Sequence record: NC_070981.1
DNA length: 64,000 nucleotides
Origin: Escherichia phage EK010
Direction: 5' to 3' (one strand)
The position numbers and the translations under genes are program-made. The notes under the pieces were generated by a model, which saw only the letters and a program-made list of their open reading frames with translations, was not told where the DNA came from and did no database searches. The first letter of the stretch is position 1, and every line of letters starts with the position of its first letter. Below are positions 20,736-54,455 of the stretch, in pieces.

Positions 20736-20768
20736 AAGGCTACCCATTTCGGGTGGCCTTTTCTTTTA
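20736..20768 (+). terminator. rho-independent terminator
   Basis: AAGGCTACCC-ATTTC-GGGTGGCCTT stem-loop then T-rich run, right after HNH gene stop. Confidence 0.6.
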
Positions 20769-20788
20769 TGTAACCTAAGGTAATAAAT

Positions 20789-21040
20789 ATGTCTAAAGTA
20801 ACTTACATCACTGTAACTGATTTCCTCCCTTCTCTGAACACAACTGAGAGCTATACTTTTCCTGTAGAAAATGTTACAAGCTCTGTTGAGATGATTCAGT
20901 TTAACAAAACAACAGCTCGTACTAATGTAGCCCTTCGTGGTCCTGATGGCAAGTTCATCTCCTTCCGTGATAAGGCTGTTCCTAAGTGTATTGCTAAGTC
21001 TATTGAAAATCTGAAACCTTTCCCTAACTTTGGTGCATAA
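20789..21040 (+). CDS. hypothetical protein, tandem paralog A
   Basis: Shares 'TARTNV..RG.DGKF.S.RD...NLKPFP' with next ORF. Confidence 0.5.
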   Translation: MSKVTYITVTDFLPSLNTTESYTFPVENVTSSVEMIQFNKTTARTNVALRGPDGKFISFRDKAVPKCIAKSIENLKPFPNFGA

Positions 21041-21041
21041 T

Positions 21042-21299
21042 ATGAAGATTAGCTTAATCCAAATTCGTGATCATCTCTTTAATGGTGACGCTCAGACTCA
21101 TGACTACAAGGTTAATCAAGGACAACACCCTACCAACCATCTTATTGGAGGGATTTCTTTATTGCCTAATAAAACAGCACGGACTAATGTAATGATTCGT
21201 GGTAAGGATGGTAAATTCCTCTCTTATCGTGATCCTGAAATCTGTGCTGATGTTCGTACAGCCATGAACAACCTAAAACCATTCCCGACAGTGGAGTAA
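21042..21299 (+). CDS. hypothetical protein, tandem paralog B
   Basis: Track ORF starts at TTG 21030; first ATG at 21042; same motif as paralog A. Confidence 0.5.
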   Translation: MKISLIQIRDHLFNGDAQTHDYKVNQGQHPTNHLIGGISLLPNKTARTNVMIRGKDGKFLSYRDPEICADVRTAMNNLKPFPTVE

Positions 21300-21302
21300 G
21301 TT

Positions 21303-21656
21303 ATGCCAGTACCTCAACGCCTAGAACGTCACTGCGTTCTCAAATGGGATAATATTCATGATAACCTCTCTATTCAAGAGTTTCGTCAGTTTATCGAATT
21401 GACAGCGAAGATTAACCGAAACCAACCAGCTCGAAACTTTGTGGTGGTTAGTGATAAGTATCCAGAGCTGTATGAGCAGGTGTGGGGGATGAAACTAGCA
21501 CAGGTTCAGAGGAATAGTAATGAACGGAGAGAAGCTCGTAGACAGCGAGCAGAAGATGTTCCAGCAGTCTTTTATGTGGATGAATTGGCTGATTCATATG
21601 AAGCTTTAGATATTGTTGAAGACAACCAAGCATTCACAGATTTAATATACCAATAA
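21303..21656 (+). CDS. hypothetical protein (117 aa)
   Basis: ATG ORF with GGAG RBS. Confidence 0.55.
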   Translation: MPVPQRLERHCVLKWDNIHDNLSIQEFRQFIELTAKINRNQPARNFVVVSDKYPELYEQVWGMKLAQVQRNSNERREARRQRAEDVPAVFYVDELADSYEALDIVEDNQAFTDLIYQ

Positions 21657-21672
21657 CTATAAGGAGTGGGTG

Positions 21673-23517
21673 ATGGATAACCCTGATAAGTTACCTTTCA
21701 TAACGGAGATGACAGTCGCTGATATAATCTCAAAACAAGCGAAGCATGGAGTCAACTTCAACAGAAGAAACGCTCGGTGGTTTGTTCACCTTCTCAAAGA
21801 GATTATTGTCAATATTGATAAAGAACTGATTCCTCTCCTCCCCAAAATGCGGGTGGATGGTTCAACTTATGCTAAGCCTTTTAAGAAATCAGGTGCTTTA
21901 CAGAAGTGGCCTCAACTCTATTGTGATAGGGTTGGTCTTAAAAGAGAAGATATCGGTGGGGCGTTTACTTGCGTTGAGTATGTAGACTTTGACCCATCAA
22001 AAGATGCACGTATCAAAGAAGCCTTGATGGATGAAGGTTTTATACCTCCAGAGTGGAATTATTCTAAGAAACCTTGGAATACTTTTGAAATTCGTAAAGC
22101 TATGAAGAAGTATGGTACATACTCTGCATGGTATTCTGCTTGGATTCGAGGTAACGCTAAAGAGAAACAGACAGCAGAGATGATAGATGCTGATATCCGA
22201 AGGTTTTTGGATAAGCACTTCCGTTATCACACTGTCAACTATATGAAAGCCTATGTCAGCGGTTTAGGTCTTAACCCTAACAGGAAGAAGCCTGTAACCT
22301 TTGATGAAATCAAAAAAGCTTTGGCTACATCAAACAAGTGGCCTACAGCCCCTACAAACCTTGAGGAGACTCTTGAAGAGGGGCTTGGGGGTGAGCTAGG
22401 GGGTGTAGGAAGTTTGCTTAAGAGACGCGTTGTAGCGGCTCACAGGCTAGGTTTGATTAGCGGGCTTATCGACAAGGAACGTAAAGATGGTAAGTTGTCC
22501 GCCGAAGCTAATAGCTGCGCTACTCCGACATTTCGTTTTAAACATCGCATTGTTGTTAATATTCCTTCTCGCGGTTTGTTTGGTCACGAGTGCCGCAGTC
22601 TTTTTCAATCTGACTATTCCTCAGACGATAGTCATAACCATCCTTTCATCATTACCAACCATATCCCTGATGGGTGTTACGTACGAAAGGGTACTAACAT
22701 TATCTACGAAATGGGAAAACCGGGCAAGAAAGACAAACCAATAGGTGCTTATAAATTTTATGTACCTGCTGGTCGTGAAATCTTCTTAGGTTACGATGGC
22801 TCTGGTCTTGAGCTGAGGATGCTTGCTCATTACCTTATCAAAGAATGTCGTGAGATGCTCGCTGAAGCAGAGCAGGAAAACAACCCAGCTAAGAAACGAG
22901 AAGCTGAACGCGGTCTAGCTTCTGCTGTTATGTACAGAGATATTCTTTTAGAAGGAGATATTCACTCACACAACCAAAAACTTGCTGGCCTTCCTACTCG
23001 TGATAATGCTAAAACGTTTATCTACGCATTCAACTACGGAGCTGGTGACGCTAAGTTAGGAAGCATCGTAGGTGGTGGCTCTGATGAAGGGGCTGTCATG
23101 AGGGCAAGATTCTTAGCAGAGAATCCTTGTATTGCAATTCTTATTGAACGTATGACAGAGAAAGCACAAAGTGGATACATCTACGGTGTGGATGGACGTC
23201 GTATTACAATGAGAAGGGATGCAACTGGAAAGGTTATGGTTCATAAAGCCTTAAACACCCTCTTACAGAGCGCTGGGGCGATTGTTATGAAGTATGCAAT
23301 GCTATTCCTTAATAAATGGATTGAGCGTGATGGTGTTCGTTGTGCGAAGGTTATTGACATGCATGATGAAGGCCAGTTCACTGTACATCGTGACGATGTT
23401 AACAAACTTCGTACCCTCACTGAAGAGTGTGTTCGTAAAGCAGGTGAATACCTCAAAATGGAATGTCCTCTTGCATCTGATTGTAAGATTGGGTTAAACT
23501 GGAATCACACTCACTAA
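21673..23517 (+). CDS. family-A DNA polymerase, polymerase domain only
   Basis: Motif A 'YDGSGLELRMLAHY', motif B 'RDNAKTFIYAFNYGAG', motif C 'VIDMHDEGQF'; ATG 21673 with AAGGAG RBS (track start is GTG 21670); no exonuclease motifs in this ORF. Confidence 0.8.
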   Translation: MDNPDKLPFITEMTVADIISKQAKHGVNFNRRNARWFVHLLKEIIVNIDKELIPLLPKMRVDGSTYAKPFKKSGALQKWPQLYCDRVGLKREDIGGAFTCVEYVDFDPSKDARIKEALMDEGFIPPEWNYSKKPWNTFEIRKAMKKYGTYSAWYSAWIRGNAKEKQTAEMIDADIRRFLDKHFRYHTVNYMKAYVSGLGLNPNRKKPVTFDEIKKALATSNKWPTAPTNLEETLEEGLGGELGGVGSLLKRRVVAAHRLGLISGLIDKERKDGKLSAEANSCATPTFRFKHRIVVNIPSRGLFGHECRSLFQSDYSSDDSHNHPFIITNHIPDGCYVRKGTNIIYEMGKPGKKDKPIGAYKFYVPAGREIFLGYDGSGLELRMLAHYLIKECREMLAEAEQENNPAKKREAERGLASAVMYRDILLEGDIHSHNQKLAGLPTRDNAKTFIYAFNYGAGDAKLGSIVGGGSDEGAVMRARFLAENPCIAILIERMTEKAQSGYIYGVDGRRITMRRDATGKVMVHKALNTLLQSAGAIVMKYAMLFLNKWIERDGVRCAKVIDMHDEGQFTVHRDDVNKLRTLTEECVRKAGEYLKMECPLASDCKIGLNWNHTH

Positions 23518-23534
23518 TTTGTAGTGGAGGAATA

Positions 23535-23726
23535 ATGACTAGACACGTACATGAAACATGGGCCATTACGGGAGCAAAAGATGCAATTGTTTGCTGTAAT
23601 GGACATTTCTGCATCTATAACACAGAAAGAAAAGCTATTCAAGAAGCGGCTGAGTTAATGGAAGAGTTTCCTGATAAAGATTTCTCTATTAAGAATCTAA
23701 CCATCAACCTTCCGTGGAAGAGCTGA
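23535..23726 (+). CDS. hypothetical protein (63 aa)
   Basis: GGAGG RBS. Confidence 0.5.
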   Translation: MTRHVHETWAITGAKDAIVCCNGHFCIYNTERKAIQEAAELMEEFPDKDFSIKNLTINLPWKS

Positions 23727-23783
23727 ATCATATTACGAAATGAACTAGTCTTATTGATTAGTTCTTTTTAAGGAGACAAGGAA

Positions 23784-23918
23784 ATGGAAGAAGTAAAAAG
23801 TTCTGAATGGTGCTTGAAGCAACAAAAACTCGCACAGGAAGAAGGACGTTTTGATGATGCCAAAGTGTATGGGGAGCTTTTTCATACATGGGTTGAACGA
23901 GAGGAGAAAGATCAATGA
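23784..23918 (+). CDS. small hypothetical protein (44 aa; below track length cut-off)
   Basis: AAGGAG RBS 7 nt upstream of ATG; fills otherwise empty + strand gap. Confidence 0.45.
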   Translation: MEEVKSSEWCLKQQKLAQEEGRFDDAKVYGELFHTWVEREEKDQ

Positions 23919-24082
23919 TGGATTTGATTCGTAAACCTGCTCCAAAATGGAATGTATATTTCCAAGATGCTACAGGAAAATTTCACAACCAACTGGTTTA
24001 TTCTGATGAAGAACGCGATGAAGTCGCTGCTCAGATTAAAGCGGATGGTGGTACAGTTCTCAAAATTTATGAAAGGGAGTAA
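23915..24082 (+). CDS. small hypothetical protein (55 aa; below track length cut-off)
   Basis: ATG overlapping upstream stop; GGAG 9 nt upstream; ends just before next gene. Confidence 0.45.
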   Translation: MMDLIRKPAPKWNVYFQDATGKFHNQLVYSDEERDEVAAQIKADGGTVLKIYERE

Positions 24083-24084
24083 TA

Positions 24085-24327
24085 ATGACTTTAACATCTA
24101 AAGAATTGAAAGAGACTCTAGAAACAACTGAAGGTAAGCAATTCTTTGTTGCACAGATTCATTCTATGGGCAAAGATTCACTACGTCAGGCTTTGTATGA
24201 ACTAACTACTGCGGTTCTTCAAACAGAAGCTGACGCTGAAGAAGCTCTAATTAAGCTAGAAGCCGCTCAGGCTGAAATTAATGGTTTGAAAGTTCGTATC
24301 AGTGAACTGGAAACACAGAATAAATAA
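24085..24327 (+). CDS. coiled-coil protein (80 aa)
   Basis: ATG ORF; heptad-like sequence; followed by UUCG-loop terminator. Confidence 0.5.
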   Translation: MTLTSKELKETLETTEGKQFFVAQIHSMGKDSLRQALYELTTAVLQTEADAEEALIKLEAAQAEINGLKVRISELETQNK

Positions 24328-24350
24328 GCTACCTTCGGGTGGCTTTTCTT
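24327..24350 (+). terminator. rho-independent terminator (UUCG tetraloop)
   Basis: AGCTACC-TTCG-GGTGGCT followed by TTTTCTT. Confidence 0.6.
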
Positions 24351-24365
24351 GTCTAAGAGGCTAGT

Positions 24366-24758
24366 ATGAATATTGGTTTAGATTATGATGACACTTTTAC
24401 AGTGGACAAGGAGATGTGGACCCACATTGTAGGTCTTATGAAATCTCGTGGACACGATGTTCGTATTGTCACTTATCGTTTTGCTCAGCCCAATGGGTAT
24501 TCAAATGAAGAGCTTCTAGCAGATGCAGCAAGTCTAGATATTCCTGTTATTTTTTGCAACGGTGTTCAGAAGGATTCTGTCACTCAGAGCTTGGGTTTCT
24601 TTGTGGATGTTTGGATTGATGACTTCCCTGTCGGTATCCCTAAAATGGACCACCTAGATGGTATGCTGAAGGGCGTAAGGCTTAATGACCTTAGAGCAGC
24701 ACCTCCGGTAGAAATAGCCTCTCCTGTGTACTCTGAAGAGCCTCTGGTGATACGATGA
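24366..24758 (+). CDS. hypothetical protein (130 aa)
   Basis: GAGG RBS; N-terminal 'GLDYDDTF' loosely resembles a DxD phosphatase motif. Confidence 0.5.
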   Translation: MNIGLDYDDTFTVDKEMWTHIVGLMKSRGHDVRIVTYRFAQPNGYSNEELLADAASLDIPVIFCNGVQKDSVTQSLGFFVDVWIDDFPVGIPKMDHLDGMLKGVRLNDLRAAPPVEIASPVYSEEPLVIR

Positions 24759-24934
24759 AGAAGTTTCTAATCTGGTCTATTGTAATTGCTCTGTTTCTTT
24801 GGGTGATGGATGCTCTTGGAGATTATAGCAAAGAAGACTGTGAGACTCGAATCTCTCAAGAGTTTAAATCAGAGACCAAGTGGGTTGATGGTCGCTGTTA
24901 CATCAAGGATTGGGGAAGGGTCTTATCAAGATGA
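24755..24934 (+). CDS. small membrane protein (59 aa)
   Basis: ATG overlapping upstream stop; N-terminal hydrophobic helix 'FLIWSIVIALFLWV'. Confidence 0.45.
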   Translation: MKKFLIWSIVIALFLWVMDALGDYSKEDCETRISQEFKSETKWVDGRCYIKDWGRVLSR

Positions 24935-25110
24935 AGAGATACAGCATGTGGTTCAATGAGGTAGAAGAGGGTTTTGATGAAGTTGGTGGTTGGGTTAATA
25001 TCCTAAACACAGACGATATAGAAGAGGCCGAGAAATGCGCCCTAAACTACAACTCTGGATATTATGAAAGAAATTGGGAGCACGATGAAATACTACAAAG
25101 TAGTTTATAA
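24931..25110 (+). CDS. small acidic protein, paralog of 25678-25845
   Basis: Track start is TTG 24910; ATG 24931 overlaps upstream stop; 'KRY..W..E..EG....GGW...L.TDD.EEAE...NY.YYE'. Confidence 0.45.
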   Translation: MKRYSMWFNEVEEGFDEVGGWVNILNTDDIEEAEKCALNYNSGYYERNWEHDEILQSSL

Positions 25111-25270
25111 GTTAAATTTATACCTTCGTGGAACAGGCAGTCTTGAAGTGTCAGGGTGTAAAGTTGTAGAAGAAGAAAACCCTATTAAAGCTGTTGAGAA
25201 GGTTAAAGAGATTATTAAGCTTGAAGAAATAGGAAGTTTTGAATTAGTTGATATTGAGGAAGTTAAATGA
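25085..25270 (+). CDS. hypothetical protein (61 aa)
   Basis: Internal ATG with GGGAG RBS. Confidence 0.4.
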   Translation: MKYYKVVYKLNLYLRGTGSLEVSGCKVVEEENPIKAVEKVKEIIKLEEIGSFELVDIEEVK

Positions 25271-25491
25271 TTTGGGTTCATACTTATAAGATTGGAAAGA
25301 AAACAGTTGACCGAATTCACTATGATGAAGCGGAAGCTCAGGCTTCTCTAGCGGTTCTTGGTGGCAAAGTTAAGAATTACATAGAGGCTGATAAAACAAC
25401 TAAGGGTGTCCCTGTTCTAGAATATCTTGGAACAAATAATCCAGTCACAGCGATGACAGTCATTAACAGCAAACAAAGGGAGATCTTATAA
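25267..25491 (+). CDS. hypothetical protein (74 aa)
   Basis: ATGA overlap with previous gene. Confidence 0.5.
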   Translation: MIWVHTYKIGKKTVDRIHYDEAEAQASLAVLGGKVKNYIEADKTTKGVPVLEYLGTNNPVTAMTVINSKQREIL

Positions 25492-25694
25492 TGTCTAAAG
25501 AGTATATTGTTAAAGCTGAAGGTAAAGGTTTGTTTCAATTCGTCACTGATGCGACGGATTATGGTCAATTGATAAACTTCGTAGAACTTGCAAAGCTCAA
25601 GGAAGAAATTGATGCTCTGTATGCCGATGAGCAATCTCGACTCCTACAAGAGTCTCTCAGTGGAGATTACATCTGCGATGGTTGCACAATCTAA
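25491..25694 (+). CDS. hypothetical protein (67 aa)
   Basis: GGGAG RBS. Confidence 0.5.
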   Translation: MSKEYIVKAEGKGLFQFVTDATDYGQLINFVELAKLKEEIDALYADEQSRLLQESLSGDYICDGCTI

Positions 25695-25845
25695 ACGATA
25701 CAAAGTCTGGCTAGACGAAGGAGCTGAATATCCTGATGGTTCTGGCTGGAAAGTTGTTCTAGAAACAGACGACAGGGAGGAGGCTGAAACGAAAGCTGAA
25801 TCCTTCAACTACTCATATTACGAGGACACATACGAGAATGGCTGA
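25678..25845 (+). CDS. small acidic protein, paralog of 24931-25110
   Basis: Internal ATG; shared motif with 24931 ORF. Confidence 0.4.
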   Translation: MVAQSKRYKVWLDEGAEYPDGSGWKVVLETDDREEAETKAESFNYSYYEDTYENG

Positions 25846-26458
25846 AGTTTATTTTGCAGGTGATGGTCACCTAGGCCATCGTAACATCTGTAACTTTAGG
25901 AAGAAGTTTAGTAGTATTGAAGAACATGATAAAGCTATCTTAGCAGCGTTTGATCATGTTACTAAACGCGATAAAACTTTCTTTACAGGTGACTGGGTGT
26001 TTGAGAAATATGCACTTGATATTATCGCTGAAGTAAAGGGAGAGAAACATCTTGTCTTAGGGAACCATGACAGATTAGAACTTCTCCCTGATATGATGAA
26101 AGTCTTTAGACATATCAGCGGTGATTATAAGTACAAAGAATTTTGGGTAACTCATATTCCTATCCACTCTGATGAAATGAGAGGAAAGTATAATATCTAT
26201 GCTCATACTCATAATTCTACTATCAGAGATTGGAGATACTTCTGTACTTCTATGGAACAAATTGATTACAGAGCTGTGTCTCTGCAAGAGATTAGAAAAG
26301 AACTGGAAAGTAGGAAAGAGTGGGTAGCTTCTTTATTACAAAAAGATCATCCAATTACCAGCGAAGTACAAGAGATGTTAAGTAAACAAGCTGAATCTAA
26401 CTTACCTTTTCAGAGAACAGTAGAACAAACTAGCTTTAAAGGTCTTTTAGAATGGTAG
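25838..26458 (+). CDS. metallophosphoesterase (calcineurin-like phosphatase)
   Basis: 'GDGHLGH', 'GNHD', 'HTHN' metal-ligand motifs. Confidence 0.6.
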   Translation: MAEVYFAGDGHLGHRNICNFRKKFSSIEEHDKAILAAFDHVTKRDKTFFTGDWVFEKYALDIIAEVKGEKHLVLGNHDRLELLPDMMKVFRHISGDYKYKEFWVTHIPIHSDEMRGKYNIYAHTHNSTIRDWRYFCTSMEQIDYRAVSLQEIRKELESRKEWVASLLQKDHPITSEVQEMLSKQAESNLPFQRTVEQTSFKGLLEW

Positions 26459-26494
26459 AAGTTATTGTTTTAAGTTAAGTTTTCTTTTGATTTT

Positions 26495-26560
26495 AATAGA
26501 GAATCAAAGTCCTAGGAGTCCTCAACCTAAATCAAGGATTTCCTTAATTCTCTATTTTTA
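26495..26560 (+). terminator. long inverted repeat with T-run (possible terminator or operator)
   Basis: AATAGAGAAT (26495-26504) and ATTCTCTATT (26547-26556) 42 nt apart, followed by TTTTTA. Confidence 0.3.
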
Positions 26561-26652
26561 TCTCGCAGGTGTCTCCTGCCCTTCGGTACTTGCAAGGGTT
26601 ACGATGATTGCCCAATATACAAGCCTGCAATAGCTTTACTAGCTATACCATA

Positions 26653-26661
26653 TATACATTA
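26653..26661 (-). promoter_or_regulatory. promoter-like motif TAATGTATA in reverse orientation
   Basis: Same 9-mer on the opposite strand in the same intergenic region, pointing leftwards into non-coding DNA. Confidence 0.25.
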
Positions 26662-26723
26662 CTACTTACTGTTATCTACTACCAAAAAGGTTATAGTATA
26701 ATAGAACCTTATCTGTATAAGTG

Positions 26724-26732
26724 TAATGTATA
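26724..26732 (+). promoter_or_regulatory. promoter-like motif TAATGTATA
   Basis: Intergenic, 59 nt upstream of SSB-like gene; TATAAT-like hexamer at 26697-26702 nearby. Confidence 0.4.
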
Positions 26733-26791
26733 TAGTATACAAACCGCTCAAAGAGAGCAACAATCTTAAATCTATATAAGGAAATATTAAT

Positions 26792-27532
26792 ATGTCTATG
26801 ATCCCTGAACTGTCTGTATCCCGTAAATCCAACTACGATGTAATCCCTGATGGTGAGTACGAAGCACGTATTGTTCGTGTTGTAGGTTTGGGTGTTCACA
26901 ATCGTGACCCTTGGATTGACCCTAAAACCAAAGCAGTTACTCCTAAGAACCCAGCTTTCCGTATGGACTTAGCTTTTGAGCTGATTGGCGTAGATGCAAC
27001 AGGGACTGATAATGAAGGCAAACCTCTGGACCCTCGCCCTGCTTGCCAGTTTAAATCTTTCGATGTAAATCCACGAGCTAAGAACTCTGGTATTCTGAAT
27101 CTGATTAAAATGATCGACCCAAGTGTTCAAGCACTGAAAGGTGATTTGGGTTGGTTTAAAGATATGCTGTTAGGTCAGCCTGTTAACATTCTGGTTAATT
27201 CCTATGTAAACAAAGCTGGTGAGAAGAAAAACTCTATTAAGAGTATCACTCCAATTCCGACCAAATATCGTGATGCTGTAGGTGCTCCTCGTAGTGAGTT
27301 GATCTTCTTCGAACCGTATGCTGAGACTGATGCTAACTTAGCTGCTTATCAAGCAATCTTCCCATTCCAACGTAACCTCTTGACTCAAGCTAACGATGCT
27401 AAGAACATTCCTCTGGCTGGTCGTGAAGTTACCAAAGCTTCTGACACTGAACAGAAGGACGCAACTCCGAGTATCCCTACTATTAATGAAGAGCCGCAGT
27501 CTACCTTTGAAGAGGACGACTCTCCTTTCTGA
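26792..27532 (+). CDS. single-stranded DNA-binding protein-like
   Basis: Acidic C-terminal tail ending 'EEDDSPF' (compare bacterial SSB 'DDDIPF'); follows a promoter-rich intergenic region. Confidence 0.5.
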   Translation: MSMIPELSVSRKSNYDVIPDGEYEARIVRVVGLGVHNRDPWIDPKTKAVTPKNPAFRMDLAFELIGVDATGTDNEGKPLDPRPACQFKSFDVNPRAKNSGILNLIKMIDPSVQALKGDLGWFKDMLLGQPVNILVNSYVNKAGEKKNSIKSITPIPTKYRDAVGAPRSELIFFEPYAETDANLAAYQAIFPFQRNLLTQANDAKNIPLAGREVTKASDTEQKDATPSIPTINEEPQSTFEEDDSPF

Positions 27533-27555
27533 TGAATCTCTCCTTGTAATAGCTT

Positions 27556-27578
27556 AGCCACCTTCGGGTGGCTTTTTT
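27556..27578 (+). terminator. rho-independent terminator (UUCG tetraloop)
   Basis: AGCCACC-TTCG-GGTGGCT followed by TTTTTT, after SSB-like gene. Confidence 0.7.
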
Positions 27579-27591
27579 CGTTGGAGTTAAA

Positions 27592-27933
27592 ATGGAAAAG
27601 CTTCAAAACAATATAGGCTTTCTTATTTTCACAGCTCTTATTTTCTTTGGTGGAATGAAGTTTGAGCAATATCGAAACGATAGCAGTGCTCTTGACCAAG
27701 AGAAGAAACAACAAGAGATAGAGATTGAGAGAGCCAAGGCTGCTGATGAAGTAGCTCAGAAAGTTCTTACCGGTTTAACTAACTGGAAGAAGAACACGGA
27801 AACTATTTACAAAGAGATGCATTATGAAAAGACTAAGCCAGTTTTTTACAATGTGTGTGCTAGCGATGAGTATGTCTCTTTATTTAACCAAAGACAGGAA
27901 GAAGCTAAGAGGGTTTTAAAATCGAAGGAATAG
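27592..27933 (+). CDS. membrane protein with N-terminal TM helix and helical periplasmic region (i-spanin-like)
   Basis: ATG 27592 with GGAG RBS; 'IGFLIFTALIFFGG' TM segment then charged helical region. Confidence 0.4.
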   Translation: MEKLQNNIGFLIFTALIFFGGMKFEQYRNDSSALDQEKKQQEIEIERAKAADEVAQKVLTGLTNWKKNTETIYKEMHYEKTKPVFYNVCASDEYVSLFNQRQEEAKRVLKSKE

Positions 27934-27956
27934 AAGAGTTTTTATCCTATGATGAA

Positions 27957-28415
27957 ATGTCAGGAAAACTAACGTGGAGAAGCTCTGAAAAGAAGAGCAA
28001 TCAATGGAACTCTAGGTTTGCTGGAAAAGAGGCTGGCTGTTTGATAGATGCTGGATACATTGTTGTGAGGTTTAATGGGAAAGCACATAAAGCTCACAGA
28101 GTGGCTTGGTATTTAAAAACAGGAGAAATCCCTGATACTGATATCGACCACAAAGATCAGATTAAATCTAACAATTCTTGGACCAACCTGAGAAAAGCAA
28201 CCAATGCGCAGAATCAGATGAATACATCTGCTCAGAAGAATTCTATAACAGGTATAAAAGGTGTCGGATATAGAAAGGATGTTAACAAGTGGACTGCTCG
28301 AATAGGGTTTGAGGATAAAGTTATTTGGCTTGGTTTTCATGATACACTGGAAGGAGCTAAGTGTGCATATAAAGAAAAAGCTATTGAGTTGTACGGGGAT
28401 TTTGCTAGCTTTTAG
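27957..28415 (+). CDS. HNH homing endonuclease with AP2-like domain
   Basis: 'IDHKDQIKSNNSWTNLRKATNAQN' plus AP2-like region; conserved N-terminal motif continues upstream of the first ATG. Confidence 0.6.
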   Translation: MSGKLTWRSSEKKSNQWNSRFAGKEAGCLIDAGYIVVRFNGKAHKAHRVAWYLKTGEIPDTDIDHKDQIKSNNSWTNLRKATNAQNQMNTSAQKNSITGIKGVGYRKDVNKWTARIGFEDKVIWLGFHDTLEGAKCAYKEKAIELYGDFASF

Positions 28416-28629
28416 TTTATCAGCTTGTTCAACGAGCGACAACAGCAGGCAATCAATGCCCTTACCAACAAACCTAAAAGCTGAATGTAGAGTTGACCTA
28501 CCTCTTTTAGAGAGTGCTCAAGGGAAGGCACTAGCCACTACGTTGGAGTGGTATCAGGACCAGTACACAGAATGTGCTGCTAATCACAATGGATTGTTAG
28601 AAGCTCTGAAAGAGCGTGGAATAGAATAA
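28363..28629 (+). CDS. lipoprotein (candidate o-spanin or exclusion lipoprotein), GTG start
   Basis: GTG 28363 with AAGGAG RBS 6 nt upstream; signal peptide 'MHIKKKLLSCTGILLAFSLSAC' with L-S-A-C lipobox. Confidence 0.45.
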   Translation: MHIKKKLLSCTGILLAFSLSACSTSDNSRQSMPLPTNLKAECRVDLPLLESAQGKALATTLEWYQDQYTECAANHNGLLEALKERGIE

Positions 28630-28967
28630 TGGAAGTCCTTAATTTCTACAAAGAGGGGTTGAAGATTCCAGAAGGCGCTATTTACATAGGAAGATATAGT
28701 GCCAAGCATGGTCTACCACAATCTAAGTATCACAACCCAATAAAGCTCCAAGAGGGTGAGCCAAGAGGTTCTACTCTGGATAAGTATAGGAAATATTTAT
28801 GGGGTGAGATAAAAGCTGGCAGAATAACTGTGGAAGAGCTTGCAAATCTGTATGGAACAAACCTTGTGTGTTATTGTAAGCCCAAACCTTGTCATGGGGA
28901 TATCCTTATGGCTGCTATAAAATGGGCAAAAGAAGAAATGGATAATGCTATAACTAAGGAAAGATGA
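28629..28967 (+). CDS. hypothetical protein with '[13 protein letters not shown]' motif
   Basis: ATG overlapping upstream stop. Confidence 0.5.
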
Positions 28968-32369: not shown

Positions 32370-32376
32370 TTCTTGT

Positions 32377-36822: not shown

Positions 36823-36858
36823 AACGTCTCCTTATAAATAAAAATGTCCTACCTCCTA

Positions 36859-43499: not shown

Positions 43500-43517
43500 A
43501 AGGGGCCGAAGCCCCTT
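43500..43517 (-). terminator. rho-independent terminator (UUCG tetraloop)
   Basis: minus-strand AAGGGGC-UUCG-GCCCCUU followed by U-rich tract. Confidence 0.55.
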
Positions 43518-43521: not shown

Positions 43522-46521
43522 TTACCTTCGACCGCCAACAGCAAACTCTATAGTGAGTCCATTCATAGATGCATTACTGTTAACATCATTATCTATAACA
43601 TTATAGAATAGGTATGGATGGTTCAATCTTACTGACACATGACGGTCTACCCCAACCCTAAACTCTTTAGTTGAGTGATTATGTCCATACTCATTAGAGA
43701 ATTGACTTCCACCTGCTTCGAACATATAAGTGCCTGTTCCTGTCACTTGTGGTCTAAACCTGTTGATGTGTTTTTGATTCCATTCATTAGTGACATTATC
43801 AAAGTCAATACCAGTCCTCTCTAGCCTCATTTCTAAAGGCCTTTCTATGACTGTATCGTTTGATCTGTCATAAAAATAATCTAAAGCACCAACATCTACT
43901 TGATAGAACCCTCTCAAGAAAGAACCTACTATTGTAACCCTCTGACGGAAGTTTGTTGCATCCTTTCTCCAGACAAGTTTATCAATAGATGGATCATCCC
44001 AAGTGACTTCTTGAAAATCTGCCCAAATAGGACCACGCTCAAGAACAGGAGGATCAACCAAACCAATACAATAAGAGTGTGGAATAGTACGGAAAGACCA
44101 AGTATCAAATTCGTAGTTCCAAACAGCAGCTTTGGTACAAGCGAAACTCTCTTTTGGCTCTCCCGGTCCTACGTATAGAATCCAAACTTCTTTCTTATCT
44201 TGGTGTAGGTGAACTTTAGTAGCTATGGGATTAACTAAACAAATCTCATTGATTAGCATATTCTTAACACGATTGGAAGCAATTGACTTCTTAGATGCCC
44301 CATTATGAAGAATAACATCGTTCTGAGTAACTACAAAATGACCACCCTCTACTTCCACAACACATTCGGGAGCAAGAATTCCTGAATCGTTAAACAACTT
44401 CTTAAACATCAGAGGTTGATATGTGTTATTAGTGGGTGACCCAATGTATGTCTCAAATTCAGTGTAAACAAACAAATAGTCCTTCAGAGGTAACACTTCT
44501 ATAAGACTACCGTTCGAATCTGCAAGATCAATATACCCTGCATACCCATTCTCAAGAGCTTCAGTCTGTCCGACAATATTAGCAGCAAGATCAGAGCTGA
44601 CAGCCCTATCATATGCATAATCATCCCACAGCTCTGGAGCCTTGTTCTCTTCTGCAAAATTAGACCAACGAAGACGCAACGGGTAATGTGTTGTAACGCC
44701 AGAAGCATTAGATTCTCTCATATTCAGAGCAAACAATCTGTTGTTAAATGCACGAATGCGCTCACACTTCCAGTTATACTTCTTAACAGAAGGGTTCCCT
44801 GATGCATCTACTACTGTCTGTTCGCCCCATCCCGGCAAGTCAACAAAGTATTCAGAATCAAACTCTTTAACTTGAGGAGTTTCATAATGGGTGGTTGCAA
44901 CTGCACAGTTAGAGATGATAGTATGATACCACGGGTAATCTTCAAAAGCATCGTAGTCTTTTTGAACCATCTGACTTACAGTGCAGGTAACTTTCACTTC
45001 ACCCTTACGGAGAGCTGTGAGCTTGAGAGTAGGGCTACTAGTGTTGGTAGTAGACACATAACCACTCTTATCTACAGTCCATTTATAGGAATAGTTACCA
45101 GTCGGAGAAGCTGTTGCTGTCAATACAATCTCTTCACCAACATCCAGAGAGGCATCTATAATATCCAAAGTCACGCCACTTAAAGGAGGGTCATTAGCTA
45201 GAAGAGCAGCTCTGCCAAAACCTTCAAGGTCCATTACGTTAGAGTAGTCATAGAAATTGTTACCTTCTGCCATACCTGTTGTATCAATTCCAGTGTTCTC
45301 TGATGCAAAATATACCACATCTTCTTTCTCAATCACAGGCTCTTCTACCGGAGCTTCAGGAGTAATAGAGTAAGACAAAGAACGAGCCATTCTAGAAGCC
45401 AAACCAACTTGAACTTCACAAGTAGCGGTACGTTTACCTTCTACAGTTGTTGCCGTGATTTGAGTATACCCCGCTACTAGGCCAGTAATGGTTGCTTCTG
45501 TACTAGAACCACTAACAGTAGCAATGTTGGGGTTAGAACTTGTCCAAGTGATTGCTTTGTTAGGGGCATTGGCTGGATTAACCGTAGCTGTTAGTATGTA
45601 CTGAGTCCCCCTATTCATTGTTACATTCTCTTGACTTAAAGAGATGCTATCAATCTGAGGAATTGCAGAAACTACACAAGATGCAGTTTTTGTCCCATTA
45701 TCAGCTGTAATGGTTACGTTACCTTCTCCTGAAGCCCTCAACACTGCGGTTAAAGAGTTTGAGTTAGGAGTGACTGACACAATACTTGGATTAGAGCTTG
45801 TCCAAGTGACGCTTGGTTTTCCTGTAATAGCAGTAAGTGTTGAAGTTCCTCCTTTTCTCACTGTCAATGTATCCTGACTTAAGAAGATTCCAGAATCTCC
45901 ATCAATAATGTTAACTGCAATCTGAGTAGAAATGGATTCATCTGCCGTTCGAACTGTAACTACTAAATTACCCTCAACAGCTTTAGAAGTAAGAGTTGCT
46001 CTCTTAGAATCTGTAGGATCAACAACAATACTGCCATAGGCTGAGTTACTTACTGACCAAACTAGGTTAGTATTTTGTGCATCTTCTGGAGTTACACTAA
46101 CTTCCAAAACCTTTGTTTTATTGAAAGTCATAGAAACAGAGGATTCTTTAGGGGTAATAGAAGATACTACCGGATAAATCTTAAGTGTCGCTGTTGCTTT
46201 CTTAGTTGCTGTAGCAACCTTGCGACTGATGTCAGTAAGCCCTTCATCAGTTAATTTGTACAACTTCTTATCTGTACCAACTACAAGGAAACTGTTGCCA
46301 GCGCTATAATAGTCAAAAGGCATAGAGATGAAAGAGAGGGGGGTAAGCTCCTTATCTTCATCAACGTAAGAAAGAGGGGCATTGCCCCCCGTCTTAAAAA
46401 CCCTTTGCTCAACAAAACGAGCATTAATAGCGTTAGTGAAAGCATTTGGTGCTAAGTCAGTAGGTGCTTGGTCAGCGATAACCCCAACTGCCCCTAATGA
46501 TTTTATTGGATATAAAGCCAT
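43522..46521 (-). CDS. large tail protein with bacterial Ig-like (BIG2-type) repeats (999 aa)
   Basis: Repeated 'TWTSSNP.I..V' Ig-like modules; followed by UUCG terminator. Confidence 0.5.
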   Translation of the reverse strand: MALYPIKSLGAVGVIADQAPTDLAPNAFTNAINARFVEQRVFKTGGNAPLSYVDEDKELTPLSFISMPFDYYSAGNSFLVVGTDKKLYKLTDEGLTDISRKVATATKKATATLKIYPVVSSITPKESSVSMTFNKTKVLEVSVTPEDAQNTNLVWSVSNSAYGSIVVDPTDSKRATLTSKAVEGNLVVTVRTADESISTQIAVNIIDGDSGIFLSQDTLTVRKGGTSTLTAITGKPSVTWTSSNPSIVSVTPNSNSLTAVLRASGEGNVTITADNGTKTASCVVSAIPQIDSISLSQENVTMNRGTQYILTATVNPANAPNKAITWTSSNPNIATVSGSSTEATITGLVAGYTQITATTVEGKRTATCEVQVGLASRMARSLSYSITPEAPVEEPVIEKEDVVYFASENTGIDTTGMAEGNNFYDYSNVMDLEGFGRAALLANDPPLSGVTLDIIDASLDVGEEIVLTATASPTGNYSYKWTVDKSGYVSTTNTSSPTLKLTALRKGEVKVTCTVSQMVQKDYDAFEDYPWYHTIISNCAVATTHYETPQVKEFDSEYFVDLPGWGEQTVVDASGNPSVKKYNWKCERIRAFNNRLFALNMRESNASGVTTHYPLRLRWSNFAEENKAPELWDDYAYDRAVSSDLAANIVGQTEALENGYAGYIDLADSNGSLIEVLPLKDYLFVYTEFETYIGSPTNNTYQPLMFKKLFNDSGILAPECVVEVEGGHFVVTQNDVILHNGASKKSIASNRVKNMLINEICLVNPIATKVHLHQDKKEVWILYVGPGEPKESFACTKAAVWNYEFDTWSFRTIPHSYCIGLVDPPVLERGPIWADFQEVTWDDPSIDKLVWRKDATNFRQRVTIVGSFLRGFYQVDVGALDYFYDRSNDTVIERPLEMRLERTGIDFDNVTNEWNQKHINRFRPQVTGTGTYMFEAGGSQFSNEYGHNHSTKEFRVGVDRHVSVRLNHPYLFYNVIDNDVNSNASMNGLTIEFAVGGRR

Positions 46522-48161: not shown

Positions 48162-48179
48162 AAGCCCCCGAAGGGGCTT
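48162..48179 (-). terminator. terminator-like hairpin (UUCG tetraloop) after tail fibre 2
   Basis: minus-strand AAGCCCC-UUCG-GGGGCUU then UU. Confidence 0.45.
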
Positions 48180-48182: not shown

Positions 48183-50339
48183 TCACTTCTCTGCTAACTT
48201 CGCTTCTAGAACTTCAATACGCTTCAGCAGATCTTGAACAACCTGCATGGTATCTAAAAGCATTGGAGTTGCATCCAACTCTTTCTGTTCCTGCTCTACC
48301 CCATCGTTGTCATGGAATTTACGAGTTTTAACATAAAGAGGTTCAACTTTCTCTGCCTGCTGTGCAATGATACCACGACGAGTTCTTCCTTGATTATCAT
48401 TGTTGTACACAAACGATTTGAAATCCAAACCTTTTATCGCACGAATTGCTTCATCAGGAGAGATATCTTGGATGTTATGTTTCAACCTTTCATCAGATAC
48501 AGGATTCATAGCAAGAGTATAAGTTCCAGCGGAGCCGGGCTGCCATGTGTAATAGAAAATCTCATTTCTGTTTGGTCGAAGGGTTAAACGACACCCGAAT
48601 TGGTTATTTTCATCACCAGAGACATGCCAACAGGAATCAGCAAAAGATCCAGCATCATTGTGAATCATCCCTACATGGGTAGTAGTTTTGTATCCACCTT
48701 GAGATGCTTGGGAAGCACTCAGTATAGAGTTAAAAGAGTAGTTAGCACCAATCCCTTGGTTATCTATAGAAAACGTCCCTCTGCGAATTCCTGTTTCGTT
48801 CCAAGACATCAATGTTCTAGACCGAGCAGCATACCTATCAGAGTTCAGGGTTCCAGAATCGTCAAAAGCTAATTGCTTGGTAACACCTTTGGTTTTATTA
48901 TAAACACCAATAATCCCATAATAAACTCCGTCGATATAAGCATCAGTTTGGAGCGTAGTAGAAGCCTCTACTTCTGAACCAATTTTATATTCAGCAACAA
49001 CAGAACCACTAGTTACTCGAGTTCCACCAGCAGGACGGTTTGCATCACTATTAATAACTGACCAAGAAGTGTTAGCTGCTACAAAAGCACCTTTAGCTCT
49101 GATAACCCAAACGCCGATGAATGAATTTGTTCTAACCTCAGAAACGTCGTCCTTACCGTAGACCGGACTTGAGCGCGATGCGTCGAGCCTGAATGAGATA
49201 TACCTAGTCCCAGCTTCGGGGGTTGTTAGATTTAGCACCCCTTGAGCAACTGGTGTAGGGAAGTAAACGGCCCCTCCTTGTTGCGCATTGTTGTAGGCAT
49301 AAGATTGCCACTGACCAGTTATATTTGGCGCGGCGGCCTCGTGGATCTTTCTGGTGAAATCTCCTGACCCACGACCATATAGACCCTTTATACTTCCCGG
49401 TTGAACACCATTCTTATCAGGAACTCGGAATGTGGTAGAGCCATCGCCTAGTGAATATTGAGACCTTTTCAGAGGATCTGCCAGCCAATCAGCATCAGAG
49501 ATAGGTGTTATCATTTGCGCGTATGCCCAAAGCTCTGGATAATCTGTACGAGAAAGAAGTTGACCATCTGACGGGATATCATTAGATGGGATATAAGCTC
49601 TACTGTCAATTAAACGGAAATCACCAATGTTGAAATTGGAGATACCATTCATTGTAGGGCCACCAGAACCTCCACCACTGTTACGAAGCTGCCTTAGTGT
49701 AACTGCATCATAGTCACCTACAGCATCTGCTACAGTAACCGGTTGCTGAAAGGTAACTTTCTCGGTAAATTGTTTGATATCAGAGTTGATACCAGTTCGA
49801 GTTACACCAATGGTGCGTCCTTTGGAATCTTTTACATAGGAACCGATTGAAGCGAAAGGTAAATCCTCGATCTCAGGACGATAACGTTTAGAGTAAATAG
49901 GATACTTGGTTTCTATACCACCATCATTCAAATCTACAACCTGAAGACGACCAGCAGAATGCACTTCTACTCCTTGAACAGAAGAGGCATAGCTCCCAAT
50001 CTTAATTGCGTTCTCTGGTGTAACTTTAATCATATCTACAGATTCTACACCATTAGCCCCTTCTGACCGGAAAGGTACATCATTAGCTACAAATGGATCA
50101 GCTTTGAATAAAGCACCTTCCATAACAGGGTCAATAGCATTCGTAACATACTGCTTGGTTGCACCTTCTGTCTTGGTCATATAAGTTGCGCTTGCATCAG
50201 ATTTCTGAAGGTATTTATCTGTCAGGTCAATAGCACCAGCAACACCATCTACAGTAGACACACCCACCACAGCAGCATCACGAGTCACAACTACATGTGG
50301 CATCATAATGCCAGATTTGGGCATTAATTCTCTAGACAT
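48183..50339 (-). CDS. tail fibre protein 2 (718 aa) with collar region and C-terminal chaperone-like domain
   Basis: Shares 'FT.K.TFQQPVT..DAVGDYDAVT.RQL...MNGISNFNIGDFRL' block and C-terminal '...LEAKLA.K' region with fibre 1. Confidence 0.6.
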   Translation of the reverse strand: MSRELMPKSGIMMPHVVVTRDAAVVGVSTVDGVAGAIDLTDKYLQKSDASATYMTKTEGATKQYVTNAIDPVMEGALFKADPFVANDVPFRSEGANGVESVDMIKVTPENAIKIGSYASSVQGVEVHSAGRLQVVDLNDGGIETKYPIYSKRYRPEIEDLPFASIGSYVKDSKGRTIGVTRTGINSDIKQFTEKVTFQQPVTVADAVGDYDAVTLRQLRNSGGGSGGPTMNGISNFNIGDFRLIDSRAYIPSNDIPSDGQLLSRTDYPELWAYAQMITPISDADWLADPLKRSQYSLGDGSTTFRVPDKNGVQPGSIKGLYGRGSGDFTRKIHEAAAPNITGQWQSYAYNNAQQGGAVYFPTPVAQGVLNLTTPEAGTRYISFRLDASRSSPVYGKDDVSEVRTNSFIGVWVIRAKGAFVAANTSWSVINSDANRPAGGTRVTSGSVVAEYKIGSEVEASTTLQTDAYIDGVYYGIIGVYNKTKGVTKQLAFDDSGTLNSDRYAARSRTLMSWNETGIRRGTFSIDNQGIGANYSFNSILSASQASQGGYKTTTHVGMIHNDAGSFADSCWHVSGDENNQFGCRLTLRPNRNEIFYYTWQPGSAGTYTLAMNPVSDERLKHNIQDISPDEAIRAIKGLDFKSFVYNNDNQGRTRRGIIAQQAEKVEPLYVKTRKFHDNDGVEQEQKELDATPMLLDTMQVVQDLLKRIEVLEAKLAEK

Positions 50340-50356: not shown

Positions 50357-50372
50357 GCTCCCCGAAGGGAGC
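50357..50372 (-). terminator. hairpin (UUCG tetraloop) between the two tail fibre genes
   Basis: minus-strand GCUCCC-UUCG-GGGAGC followed by UUU and the AAGGAG RBS of fibre 2. Confidence 0.4.
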
Positions 50373-53300: not shown

Positions 53301-53603
53301 AGCATTAGCAACGGCAGCATTAGACTGAGCAATAAGTTGCATCAAACGAGCGTCTTGATCTTTGAAGTCTTGCTTAAGAGCTTCAATATCCTCACGTAAC
53401 AGAATCCCTTGTTGATAAAGTTTTTCCACTTCTGCAATCAGATCATCAACCGTACCAAATTTAGCCTCTGCCAATAGTGACCAATATTTAGCATCAGCAG
53501 CATATTCAGCTGCTTGCTTATAGGCTCCAATAGAGCCTTCTGTTGCACCAAACTGACCAACGTTGTTAGGATTAGTTGGCTCTTGGTTGTTATAAACGAT
53601 CAT
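50382..53603 (-). CDS. tail fibre protein 1 (1073 aa) with collar region and C-terminal chaperone-like domain
   Basis: Same conserved blocks; divergent central region. Confidence 0.6.
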   Translation of the reverse strand: MIVYNNQEPTNPNNVGQFGATEGSIGAYKQAAEYAADAKYWSLLAEAKFGTVDDLIAEVEKLYQQGILLREDIEALKQDFKDQDARLMQLIAQSNAAVANANNAIALINQKLVEVDKQLDILLGMTVEVTTLSPGQPATGEFDPTTGKISLGIPEGLPGKDGSVKDLNTVDTGVPVAGDLGFYVDQTDNTVHKTTLENIANLIPSVRDISVNGGPAESGSVSLTIDKSTVGLDNVENVASYSKEETDKKVDRFIKAYNTKADADADAINRKAGETILVWEDTKYSFYTVASDKILEPLKTEPRVVTVNSRIPDSTGNIDITIPTGNPSLYLGEMVMFPYDPAKNISYPGILPADGRLVSKESAADLGPSLLSGQLPVVSETEWQAGAKQYFSWGKQADGITDADSTNYVNIRLPDWTGGETIRSPNSATDTEYKGQVQAQKPYIVTVNGLSPNDNTGNVNLTPATIGAIAKAGGIMDGNLVLNNGISLRRIKDDSSQVNMVSRSGSDSSVFGDHLARTVIASSSVPYLSTPSGDYLFYAENNKPTPAAIGAAAVTTDGVNSDLKTFTQKATFQQPVTIPDAVGDYDAVTYRQLKNQGGGGGGATMNGISNFNIGDFRLVDSRAFIHSSDITSDGQLLTRADYPELWAYAQLLTPISDDDWLASPEKRGKYSLGDGSTTFRVPDRNGVQANSIAGLFGRGDSGNSGNDGAVFSSGAPNITGTPEVTMLSGWGSGGSVRGRGSFSPQTTTLTPIGGTNAINGSYVNIDFDASKSNPIYGRTVSELRPNNFIGVWVIRAKGAFIAANTSWSVINSDDIRPSDGTTITGGNLVSDYRVGTEPEGSAEFKMQGTVGGSYSARIGVYNKTSSKGTTFDFTEAGNIETPKGRVLVKDDYGVGVQGGTVLPDSNYNQFITDSDGNSPWAAANGGGFQTSYAVNRICQFWISLNGSAYVRTNTINNNPKELKTNLPWTTLQNAGTSDANVKDIGDDLDLNVALSNIKALEFKNFTYKSDEKKSPRRGVIAQQAEQVDPQYVHSAEKSGVMTLDTNPLLLDALAAIKCLSEKVEELEAKLAAK

Positions 53604-53612
53604 AATCTCTCC

Positions 53613-54359
53613 TTAACTGTAATGTTTAATTCCGTATAATTCACGAGAGCTGTGAAGACGGTCGATAGTTCGAGGGATAACTAGAGGAGAACCTGAATAC
53701 TCAGCTTTCTTACTCTGTTCAACTACTTCATCTAAGATGGCTTTCCCTAAAGCCGACCACTTCTGAACCCCATTATCATCTTGAACAAACAAGCTTGCAT
53801 GACGTAATGTGAAATATAGAAGAAGCTCTGGAGCTATTGTTAAAATTGCACTTGTATCAGAATCCTCATGAAACTCCGGAGGGTCTGCATAATAGCTAAG
53901 AATTACCGAATTCTCCGCTGGAATAAGAGGGCTTCCATCATCAGGGTAGACCGGAGTATCGGCGTTGATGGCTGGGTAGAACAGGAACCGACTTCCCAAC
54001 CTAGTAAAACTCACTTCTCCCTGATTCCAGTTAGTTGGGTTTACTGAGTTATTTCTTTTCAGCCAATCTAACTCTTCTGGAGAAGTTACTCGGAACATAT
54101 GTCCATTACTTGCTCTCATCATCCACTGAGCTTCTAAGTAGTCTGGTGGAATAAAAGCCACACCATCTTTAATATCTAAATATACTTCTTTTTCCAGAGG
54201 AGGAATTCGTAAGTTACGATAGATTTCTTTCTCTGCAAAGTTAATAAAGTTTGGAATCTGATTAACAAATTCATCATCATCCCTGTCAGCCCAGAGGGAC
54301 ACAGCTTTCTTGAGCCATCCGTAGGTATTGATGGGATATTGAACGTCAGGCATTGCCAT
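53613..54359 (-). CDS. virion protein (248 aa; candidate head-tail connector/adaptor)
   Basis: Position between capsid module and fibres; TAATGTATT motif 33 nt upstream. Confidence 0.4.
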   Translation of the reverse strand: MAMPDVQYPINTYGWLKKAVSLWADRDDDEFVNQIPNFINFAEKEIYRNLRIPPLEKEVYLDIKDGVAFIPPDYLEAQWMMRASNGHMFRVTSPEELDWLKRNNSVNPTNWNQGEVSFTRLGSRFLFYPAINADTPVYPDDGSPLIPAENSVILSYYADPPEFHEDSDTSAILTIAPELLLYFTLRHASLFVQDDNGVQKWSALGKAILDEVVEQSKKAEYSGSPLVIPRTIDRLHSSRELYGIKHYS

Positions 54360-54392
54360 AACTTGTCCTCCTAGTTGTGTATAGACAAAGAG

Positions 54393-54401
54393 AATACATT
54401 A
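54393..54401 (-). promoter_or_regulatory. promoter-like motif TAATGTATT (one mismatch)
   Basis: 33 nt upstream of ATG 54359. Confidence 0.3.
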
Positions 54402-54433
54402 CATATCTCCTTATAAGGGTCTTAAAATGAGAA

Positions 54434-54455
54434 AAGGCCACCCGAAGGCAGCCTT
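54434..54455 (-). terminator. rho-independent terminator (UUCG tetraloop) after capsid/Ig-like frame
   Basis: minus-strand AAGGCUGCC-UUCG-GGUGGCCUU then U-rich tract. Confidence 0.55.

Follow-up and report, generated by a model that had tools for sequence, protein, structure and literature searches.

The window analysed here, a 64,000-nucleotide (nt) stretch of Escherichia phage EK010 (NC_070981.1), carries seven short hairpins, S1 through S7, each just past the end of a gene and each followed by a run of T residues. These hairpins are very probably (roughly 0.85, by our estimate) intrinsic, Rho-independent terminators or attenuators for the host Escherichia coli RNA polymerase. Most likely they are ordinary elements of a known kind: UUCG-capped intrinsic terminators, several of whose orthologues are already annotated in sister phages. 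A first-pass annotation had listed the seven hairpins and read them as terminators. All seven are indeed present, and the terminator assignment is supported by several indirect lines of evidence: position and strand; a stem followed by a T-run; G·U pairs in the sense RNA; conservation across the genus; annotation in the records of phages Paul and SU10; and resemblance to terminator TE of phage T7. From the letters, we infer that transcripts end at S1 through S7, and how efficiently they do so at each.

Window positions 20000-30000 are 100% identical, in reverse orientation, to Escherichia phage E20-1 (OP293233.1, 77.9 kb), and the phage belongs to the genus Kuravirus, the phiEco32-like phages. 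Its genes form two converging arms: early and middle genes on the + strand, to about 32157; and late structural genes on the - strand, from 32377. Phages of the phiEco32 type lack an RNA polymerase and depend on that of the host, directed by sigma-70 in the early phase and by a sigma factor of the phage (gp36) thereafter (PMC4281155; PMC12276001). The late promoter consensus is AATGTA, or tAATGTAt (PMC12276001; PMC4281155). Annotation of the E20-1 record comprises coding genes and one tRNA, with no regulatory features.

Three of the hairpins are on the + strand. S1 (20736-20760; AAGGCTACCC-ATTTC-GGGTGGCCTT, then TTCTTTTATG) has a stem of 10 base pairs (bp), including one U·G pair, and a 5-nt loop, AUUUC. 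It begins 3 nt past the stop of an HNH endonuclease open reading frame (ORF; 20238-20732), and the next gene runs from 20789. S2 (24326-24345; AAGCTACC-TTCG-GGTGGCTT, then TTCTTGTCTA) has an 8-bp stem with one U·G pair and a UUCG loop; the stop codon of ORF 24085-24327 lies partly within it, and the following gene runs from 24366. S3 (27556-27573; AGCCACC-TTCG-GGTGGCT, then TTTTTCGTTG), with a perfect 7-bp stem and a UUCG loop, lies 23 nt past ORF 26792-27532 and just upstream of an Rz-like spanin gene that starts at 27592.

The other four, all with UUCG loops, are on the - strand. S4 (43500-43517; AAGGGGC-TTCG-GCCCCTT, then TTATTGTTTA) has a 7-bp stem and lies 4 nt past the stop of the gene for a 999-residue immunoglobulin-like (Ig-like) virion protein (43522-46521); the next gene runs from 43474. 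S5 (48162-48179; AAGCCCC-TTCG-GGGGCTT, then TTAGGAG, for a total of four T residues) likewise has a 7-bp stem; it lies 3 nt past the stop of a 718-residue tail fibre gene (48183-50339), and a holin gene starts 69 nt on. S6 (50357-50372; GCTCCC-TTCG-GGGAGC, then TTTAAGGAG) has a 6-bp stem and lies 9 nt past the stop of a 1073-residue tail fibre gene. Its three T residues, the weakest T-run among the seven, run into the Shine-Dalgarno sequence for the tail fibre gene that starts at 50339. S5 and S6 thus flank the 718-residue tail fibre gene, and each has a ribosome-binding site directly 3' of it. Finally, S7 (54434-54455; AAGGCTGCC-TTCG-GGTGGCCTT, then TTCTCATTTT) has a 9-bp stem with a U·G and a G·U pair; it lies 4 nt past the stop of an Ig-like capsid-decoration gene, and a late promoter comes next. 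This putative promoter was identified by motif scan: its AATGTA core (54395-54400, - strand), of the type recognized by the gp36-type phage sigma factor, is about 35 nt downstream of S7 and is conserved in relatives.

An eighth UUCG hairpin, S8 (GCCCCGTC-TTCG-GATGGGGC-TTTTTT), is in the early region, outside the window, at 71000-71019 of the E20-1 record. All eight are on the coding strand of their own arm, start 0-23 nt past a stop codon, and occupy spacers of 40-100 nt; at S1 through S7, 17-74 nt separate the hairpin from the start of the gene downstream.

The first-pass annotation had described the seven as near-identical and capped throughout by a UUCG tetraloop. The tetraloop is present in six: S2 through S7 have C-TTCG-G, that is, UUCG closed by a C-G pair, but the ATTTC loop of S1 falls outside the UNCG class. 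Near-identity holds for S2 and S3, which differ by one base in an 18-mer, and loosely for S1 and S7; these four have in common the 3' arm GGTGGC. By contrast, S4, S5, and S6 share only the loop, its closing pairs, and a G+C-rich stem. The T-run reported after each hairpin is present in every case, but is short at S5 (4 T) and S6 (3 T).

Hairpins of this form are far more frequent than chance predicts. Six hairpins combine a TTCG loop with a stem of 5 bp or more that includes three or more G-C pairs; 200 shuffles that preserve dinucleotides contain 0.33 on average and never more than 3. By itself, the hexamer CTTCGG shows no enrichment (21 occurrences against 17.5 expected), so the excess resides in the hairpins. 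The exact pattern given in the first-pass annotation, allowing up to three mismatches, has three matches against 0.05 expected.

The structures also have the dimensions of terminators. With stems of 6-10 bp, 4-6 G-C pairs, and loops of 4-5 nt, S1 through S7 all fall within the range used here for an intrinsic terminator hairpin (about 5-14 bp for the G+C-rich stem, 3-8 nt for the loop). Their hairpin energies lie between -8 and -15 kcal/mol. Folded with 10-15 nt of flank on each side, the sequences adopt the structures as drawn, with z-scores for S1 through S7 of -4.2 (fold energy -17.4 kcal/mol), -2.55, -2.3, -2.7, -1.25, -2.5, and -3.3. TransTermHP-style tail scores are -5.2, -4.8, -5.3, -5.1, -4.1, -3.5, and -4.7, respectively; all are beyond the usual cut-off of -2.5, and T7 TE scores -4.0. 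The U-tract itself is clear for S1 through S4 and for S7, and marginal for S5 and S6. Moreover, where the stem contains U·G or G·U pairs (S1, S2, S7, and S8), the sense RNA is 4-6 kcal/mol more stable than the antisense (4.3 kcal/mol for S1). This greater stability of the sense hairpin argues for a role in RNA, along the direction of transcription.

The first-pass annotation had suggested covariance across related phages as a check, and this supports the terminator reading. The comparison set comprised 11 kuraviruses (the window phage together with phiEco32, SU10, Bas87, Bas88, TH42, TH43, TH38, Ec3-ASingh, Paul, and NC-B), in which sites were placed by their flanks. A hairpin is present at the orthologous intergenic position in nearly all genomes with locatable flanks; S1 was located in only eight of the 11. 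At S1, phiEco32, Paul, and TH38 keep the stem, with loops AAUA or AAAU in place of AUUUC. At S2, AAGCTACC/GGTGGCTT is replaced in the phiEco32 clade by AAGCTGCC/GGCGGCTT, a compensatory change from A-U to G-C, and the Paul loop is UUAG; the gene upstream of S2 has no homology between clades. The S3 stem is invariant across the set, with loops UUCG, UCCG, or UUUG. At S4, GGGGC/GCCCC alternates with GGGAGC/GCUCCC, which has an inserted base pair (Bas88, TH42, TH43), and the loop is UUCGU in the phiEco32 clade. S5 is nearly invariant across the genus, its short T-run included; the phiEco32 clade has just three T residues.

S6 and S7 vary most in their paired positions. S6 occurs as GCTCCC/GGGAGC; as GCCCTC/GAGGGC, with loops UUCG or UUAG; as GCCCUCU/AGAGGGC, with the loop CUUC; and, in Paul, as ACCCCUCUC-GAAA-GGGAGGGGU. 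At S7, the window stem AAGGCTGCC/GGTGGCCTT has variants in phiEco32/SU10, Paul, NC-B, and NJ01: ACCCTGCC/GGCGGGGT, AAAGCCGCC/GGTGGCTTT, and AAAGCCGCC/GGCGGCTTT, together with AAAGCTGCC/GGTGGCTTT in NJ01. RNAalifold identifies changes on both sides of a pair at S7 (two compensatory pairs) and at S6 (two pairs). In the S7 alignment, 96.8% of cells are paired, a value reached by one of 500 shuffles; registers slid along the alignment give 30-70%. Compensatory changes at S2, S4, S6, and S7 indicate that structure, rather than sequence, is conserved among relatives. This pattern suggests selection for a stable hairpin, with no specific loop or stem sequence, and is supportive rather than overwhelming.

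These features are consistent with a conventional model for intrinsic termination. Once polymerase has passed the stop codon, the nascent RNA would fold, with the unusually stable C(UUCG)G tetraloop nucleating a short G+C-rich stem. If folding takes place while the U-run, as a weak rU:dA hybrid, occupies the active site, the transcript would be released. The two long one-directional gene arms would thereby be divided into transcription units. Efficient termination is expected at S1 through S4 and at S7, which have a good U-run; S5 and S6, with three or four U residues, would probably permit much readthrough. S7 together with the late promoter downstream would uncouple the capsid genes from the tail genes, for which transcription would restart. 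Once released, the RNA would retain its 3' hairpin, which would slow 3'-to-5' exonucleases. A stability role had been proposed in addition to termination; such 3'-end protection is plausible as a generic property of terminator hairpins, and would be a by-product rather than a separate function.

Several points weigh against this model. S5 and S6 have three or four T residues and then, at once, a ribosome-binding site; were they efficient, the late genes downstream, for which no promoter is obvious, would be starved of transcription. The z-score for S5 (-1.25) means that it folds little better than its shuffles. The comparative set is small: 11 genomes in about three or four clades, with few independent substitutions. 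A simple terminator scan returned 20 and 24 terminator-like sites against about 14 expected, a modest overall excess. Finally, the searchable literature yielded no RNA-seq, Term-seq, or transcript-end data for kuraviruses, E20-1 included.

The first of these points bears on what S5 and S6 do. A scan for the AATGTA motif found no such promoter after either hairpin, and leakiness fits their place inside the late gene block with no promoter after them. Probably, then, S5 and S6 are leaky terminators or 3'-end stabilizers. The second of these roles forms a rival explanation: some hairpins, chiefly S5 and S6, would act mainly as 3'-end stabilizers or processing barriers within a long late transcript, where trimming by exonucleases or RNase E would halt at the UUCG hairpin and so set the half-lives of individual segments. 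This is the most serious of the alternatives, a tentative reading that we hold to be possible but distinctly less likely than termination. S5 and S6 have the weakest tail scores of the seven, their short T-run is kept across the genus, and it was between the cistrons of T4 mRNA that CUUCGG hairpins first came to notice (cited in PMC3972237). However, the S5 and S6 tail scores are still near that of T7 TE, a working terminator. Moreover, a stabilizing role is compatible with partial termination, and sequence cannot separate the two.

Similar hairpins recur well beyond the genus, and this recurrence bears on their origin. A protein-anchored search of IMG/VR around S7 found six loci, five of them from close kuraviruses. 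In an IMG/VR contig whose neighbouring protein is 55% identical, the S7 position has a different hairpin and T-run, followed by an AATGAA-type motif. In Proteus phage 3H10_20, a terminator-like hairpin with a GAAA loop is 3' of the capsid genes. Ahead of the orthologous virion structural gene, Aeromonas phage LAh_6 (NC_048774; L021 5402-5425) has AAAGGCTGCC-TTAG-GGTGGCCTTT-TTTTT. The stem is that of S7, both wobble pairs included, in a phage whose capsid protein is only 59% identical. The LAh_6 hairpin is followed by ACGTAATGAAAAC, which resembles the kuravirus late-promoter core.

Flanks cease to be shared when the hairpin sequence itself is the query. The exact S7 20-mer with TTCG is present in 109 IMG/VR contigs, representing 34 unrelated flank contexts and followed in every case by a T-run; a Watson-Crick variant of the 5' arm is present in 10 contigs, against the 109 for the doubly wobbled stem. 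With the loop freed, AGGCTGCC-N4-GGTGGCCT occurs in at least 120 contigs; among the matches listed, about 116 continue into a T-run, and the loops are varied. With two stem pairs freed as well (AGGC-NN-CC-TTCG-GG-NN-GCCTTT), contexts among the matches listed number 13 for CA/TG, 12 for CG/CG, about 11-14 for TG/TG, 10 for GG/TC, and 7 for TG/CG, with a single unpaired match. About 60% of these listed stems (IMG/VR loci L235-L331) contain at least one sense G·U pair, a frequency that may be as expected from C-to-T drift at a tolerated position, or may reflect selection for one-directional terminators. The notion that the exact S7 stem is a special sequence was dropped, as several pair combinations are about equally common once the pairs are freed and the matches dereplicated. 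Because the free pairs are spread over many paired combinations, the exact S7 sequence is best viewed as one popular member of a broad design.

BLAST with a 33-mer gave near matches in 251 phage records (T4-like, Erwinia, Vibrio, Aeromonas, Cronobacter, Klebsiella, and Pectobacterium phages), of which the match in Pectobacterium phage phiTE carries the annotation "terminator". Near matches are also present, at variable positions, in 808 of 5426 complete E. coli genomes. In E. coli THO-006 the exact S7 23-mer (L332 2501-2523) lies in a lambdoid prophage, between genes for an ATP-binding protein and a lambda-family holin, immediately 5' of the latter. Likewise, UUCG terminators of the S3 type (GCCACC/GGTGGC) and the S4 type (GGGGC/GCCCC) are found in unrelated contigs. 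These widespread phage and prophage terminators (AGGC-NN-CC-UUCG-GG-NN-GCC-UUU) have the same design as the window sites but unlike flanks and gene context. As judged from the sequences compared, the link between them is one of design, without demonstrable descent.

Could the hairpins nevertheless descend from a single portable terminator cassette whose homologous copies were spread, within phages and between them, through duplication or short-patch recombination, and which doubled as a recombination linker at module boundaries? T4-type phages do contain promoter/stem-loop cassettes. The GGTGGC arm common to S1, S2, S3, and S7 is in keeping with such copies, as are the 34 contexts of the S7 20-mer and the 251 phage records with near matches. 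Moreover, sequences upstream of S1, S2, S5, S6, and S7 are non-homologous between clades, whereas the hairpin and downstream flank are conserved, and an HNH endonuclease gene is inserted directly before S1. However, similarity ends at the hairpin and T-run. Orthologous sites are more alike than sites within one genome, so there is no homogenization of the kind that marks dispersed repeats such as repetitive extragenic palindromic (REP) sequences or bacterial interspersed mosaic elements (BIMEs). The free stem pairs vary in similar numbers of contexts, so that the exact sequence is nothing special, and short G+C-rich stems offer little sequence space: S3- and S4-type stems, too, recur in unrelated contigs. 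Overall, a cassette is unlikely. The common origin suggested in the first-pass annotation meets the same objections (unrelated flanks, orthologues closer than same-genome sites, identical stems in unrelated phages) and is not sustained; the hairpins resemble each other because they follow a common design, found also in T7 and in unrelated phages.

A related proposal, which we consider slightly less likely still, is that the hairpins serve as portable linkers for module exchange at the points where kuraviruses swap upstream genes (tail fibre tips, Ig-like domains, small early genes, an HNH endonuclease), such that the wide recurrence of 20-23-nt sequences would be partly a trace of exchange rather than pure convergence. 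Mosaic junctions do coincide with S1, S2, S5, S6, and S7: the 3' ends of the upstream tail fibre genes, Ig-like genes, and small early genes are not homologous between clades. The HNH endonuclease ORF before S1 (20238-20732, + strand; PHROG 59, E = 5e-34) is present in E20-1 and TH42; in Bas87 and Bas88, this gene is absent and another gene end is joined to the same GCTTTAAGCTCAAGTTAATAT-hairpin junction. Gene ends, however, are expected to host junctions anyway.

Sequence-specific recognition is a very doubtful explanation. Here, the hairpins would be operators for an RNA-binding protein (such as a translational repressor, an antiterminator, or a phage regulator) that reads the UUCG loop or the GGUGGC arm. 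The arm is indeed present at four sites, and the S7 stem with both wobbles is identical in LAh_6 despite the divergence of the capsid protein. But loops at the same site vary among close relatives (UUCG, UCCG, UUUG, UUAG, GAAA, or 5-nt), stems are swapped through compensatory changes, and the same hairpin occurs in unrelated phages with no obvious common regulator.

Least probable of all are RNase III sites of the T7 mRNA type, a processing role that the first-pass annotation had raised, or DNA cruciforms in replication or packaging: the hairpins are inverted repeats in intergenic DNA, but RNase III requires double-stranded RNA of about two helical turns (some 20 bp or more), in many cases interrupted by an internal loop, whereas the stems here are 6-10 bp (the longest is S1) and their flanks add no extended helix; G·U pairs become A·C mismatches on the opposite strand, and in a cruciform as well; every copy points the same way with respect to transcription; and no part of the window matches Rfam at gathering scores. 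Stem length, strand asymmetry, and loop variability thus led us to reject RNase III sites, cruciforms, and protein operators, respectively.

Intrinsic termination, then, is the reading that best accommodates S1 through S7, and other structures in the window may be considered beside them. A bidirectional terminator is predicted where the two arms converge (32341-32372, both strands; GAAGCCCCC-uu-CC UUUC GG-uu-GGGGGCUUUUC on the + strand). Its loop is UUUC on the + strand and GAAA on the - strand, with T-runs on both sides; folding energies are -24.1 (+) and -23.5 (-) kcal/mol, with z-scores of -4.5 and -3.9. This hairpin, which the first-pass list did not include, would be a member of the same functional set.

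Three further structures were noted in the late arm, on the - strand. At 36846-36880, an inverted repeat of 14-15 bp (GTCCTATCTCTTAT-AATGTAT-ATAGGAGGTAGGAC, then ATTTTTATTT) has the AATGTA late-promoter core as its loop; it is upstream of the gene for a 1481-residue protein (32377-36822) and is exactly conserved in Bas87, Bas88, TH42, TH43, and NC-B. The arrangement suggests that the terminator of the upstream gene overlaps the promoter of the one that follows. At 62404-62422, a terminator-like hairpin of the non-UUCG type (GCCTCC-TCTCGTG-GGAGGC-TTTTTGTT) lies within 20 nt of an AATGTA motif at 62387 (- strand), and the two form another predicted terminator-promoter pair. Lastly, a terminator-like hairpin at 46374-46390 (GGGGGGCAATGCCCCTC-TTTCTTAC) falls within the 999-residue Ig-like virion gene that precedes S4, in its 5' part and on its coding strand.

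The worth of these observations lies mostly in annotation: together, the hairpins and the AATGTA promoters would provide a first map of E20-1 transcription units, in which S5 and S6, both probably leaky, enclose a tail fibre gene. In phage engineering, these sites would be compact, one-directional terminators to retain when genes are swapped. More broadly, the recurrence of AGGC..CC-UUCG-GG..GCC-UUU, often with G·U pairs, is an example of a terminator design shared among enterobacterial phages and their relatives. This shared design opens no new question.

The closest counterparts are in the kuraviruses themselves. The GenBank record for Paul has "terminator" features at the orthologues of S3, S4, and S7 and at the convergence site, and the latter is also annotated in SU10; the S7 orthologue is among the terminators in Table S2 of the SU10 paper. 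The Paul and SU10 records have no annotation at the orthologues of S1, S2, S5, and S6. For SU7, eight terminator predictions by ARNold are reported. The exact hairpin sequences had no match in the searchable literature.

Outside the genus, the instructive comparison is with T7 TE, annotated as "E. coli transcription terminator TE" at nt 7588 (GGCTCACC-TTCG-GGTGGGCC-TTTCTGCG, with the tail read as TTTCTGCGTTTATAAGGAG). TE follows gene 1.3 and is also known as BioBrick part B0012. Its sequence is nearly the same as those of S1, S2, and S7, with the U·G pair at the equal position in the stem. Like the window sites, it has a C(UUCG)G loop, an interrupted T-run, and a ribosome-binding site soon after, and it serves the host polymerase. 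T7, however, has a single such site, at the end of the early region, whereas E20-1 has eight, spread across middle and late genes. Termination at TE was demonstrated by experiment; the E20-1 sites are predicted from sequence.

The loop, too, has precedent. In Term-seq atlases, the median loop is 4 nt long for each species covered (PMC12207403), and termination at an engineered T7 terminator improves with a UUCG loop (Mairhofer 2015, via PMC9157156). Among the hairpins of T4 mRNA and among Rho-independent terminators, UUCG and GAAA tetraloops have been documented (Tuerk 1988; d'Aubenton Carafa 1990; both as cited in PMC3972237). S1, with its 5-nt loop, is outside the strict UUCG class formed by the CUUCGG hairpins of T4 mRNA and E. 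coli. As cited in PMC3972237, those hairpins are extra-stable structures with short, G+C-rich, C-G-closed stems, located between cistrons or at transcript ends; so described, they differ from the window sites in nothing essential.

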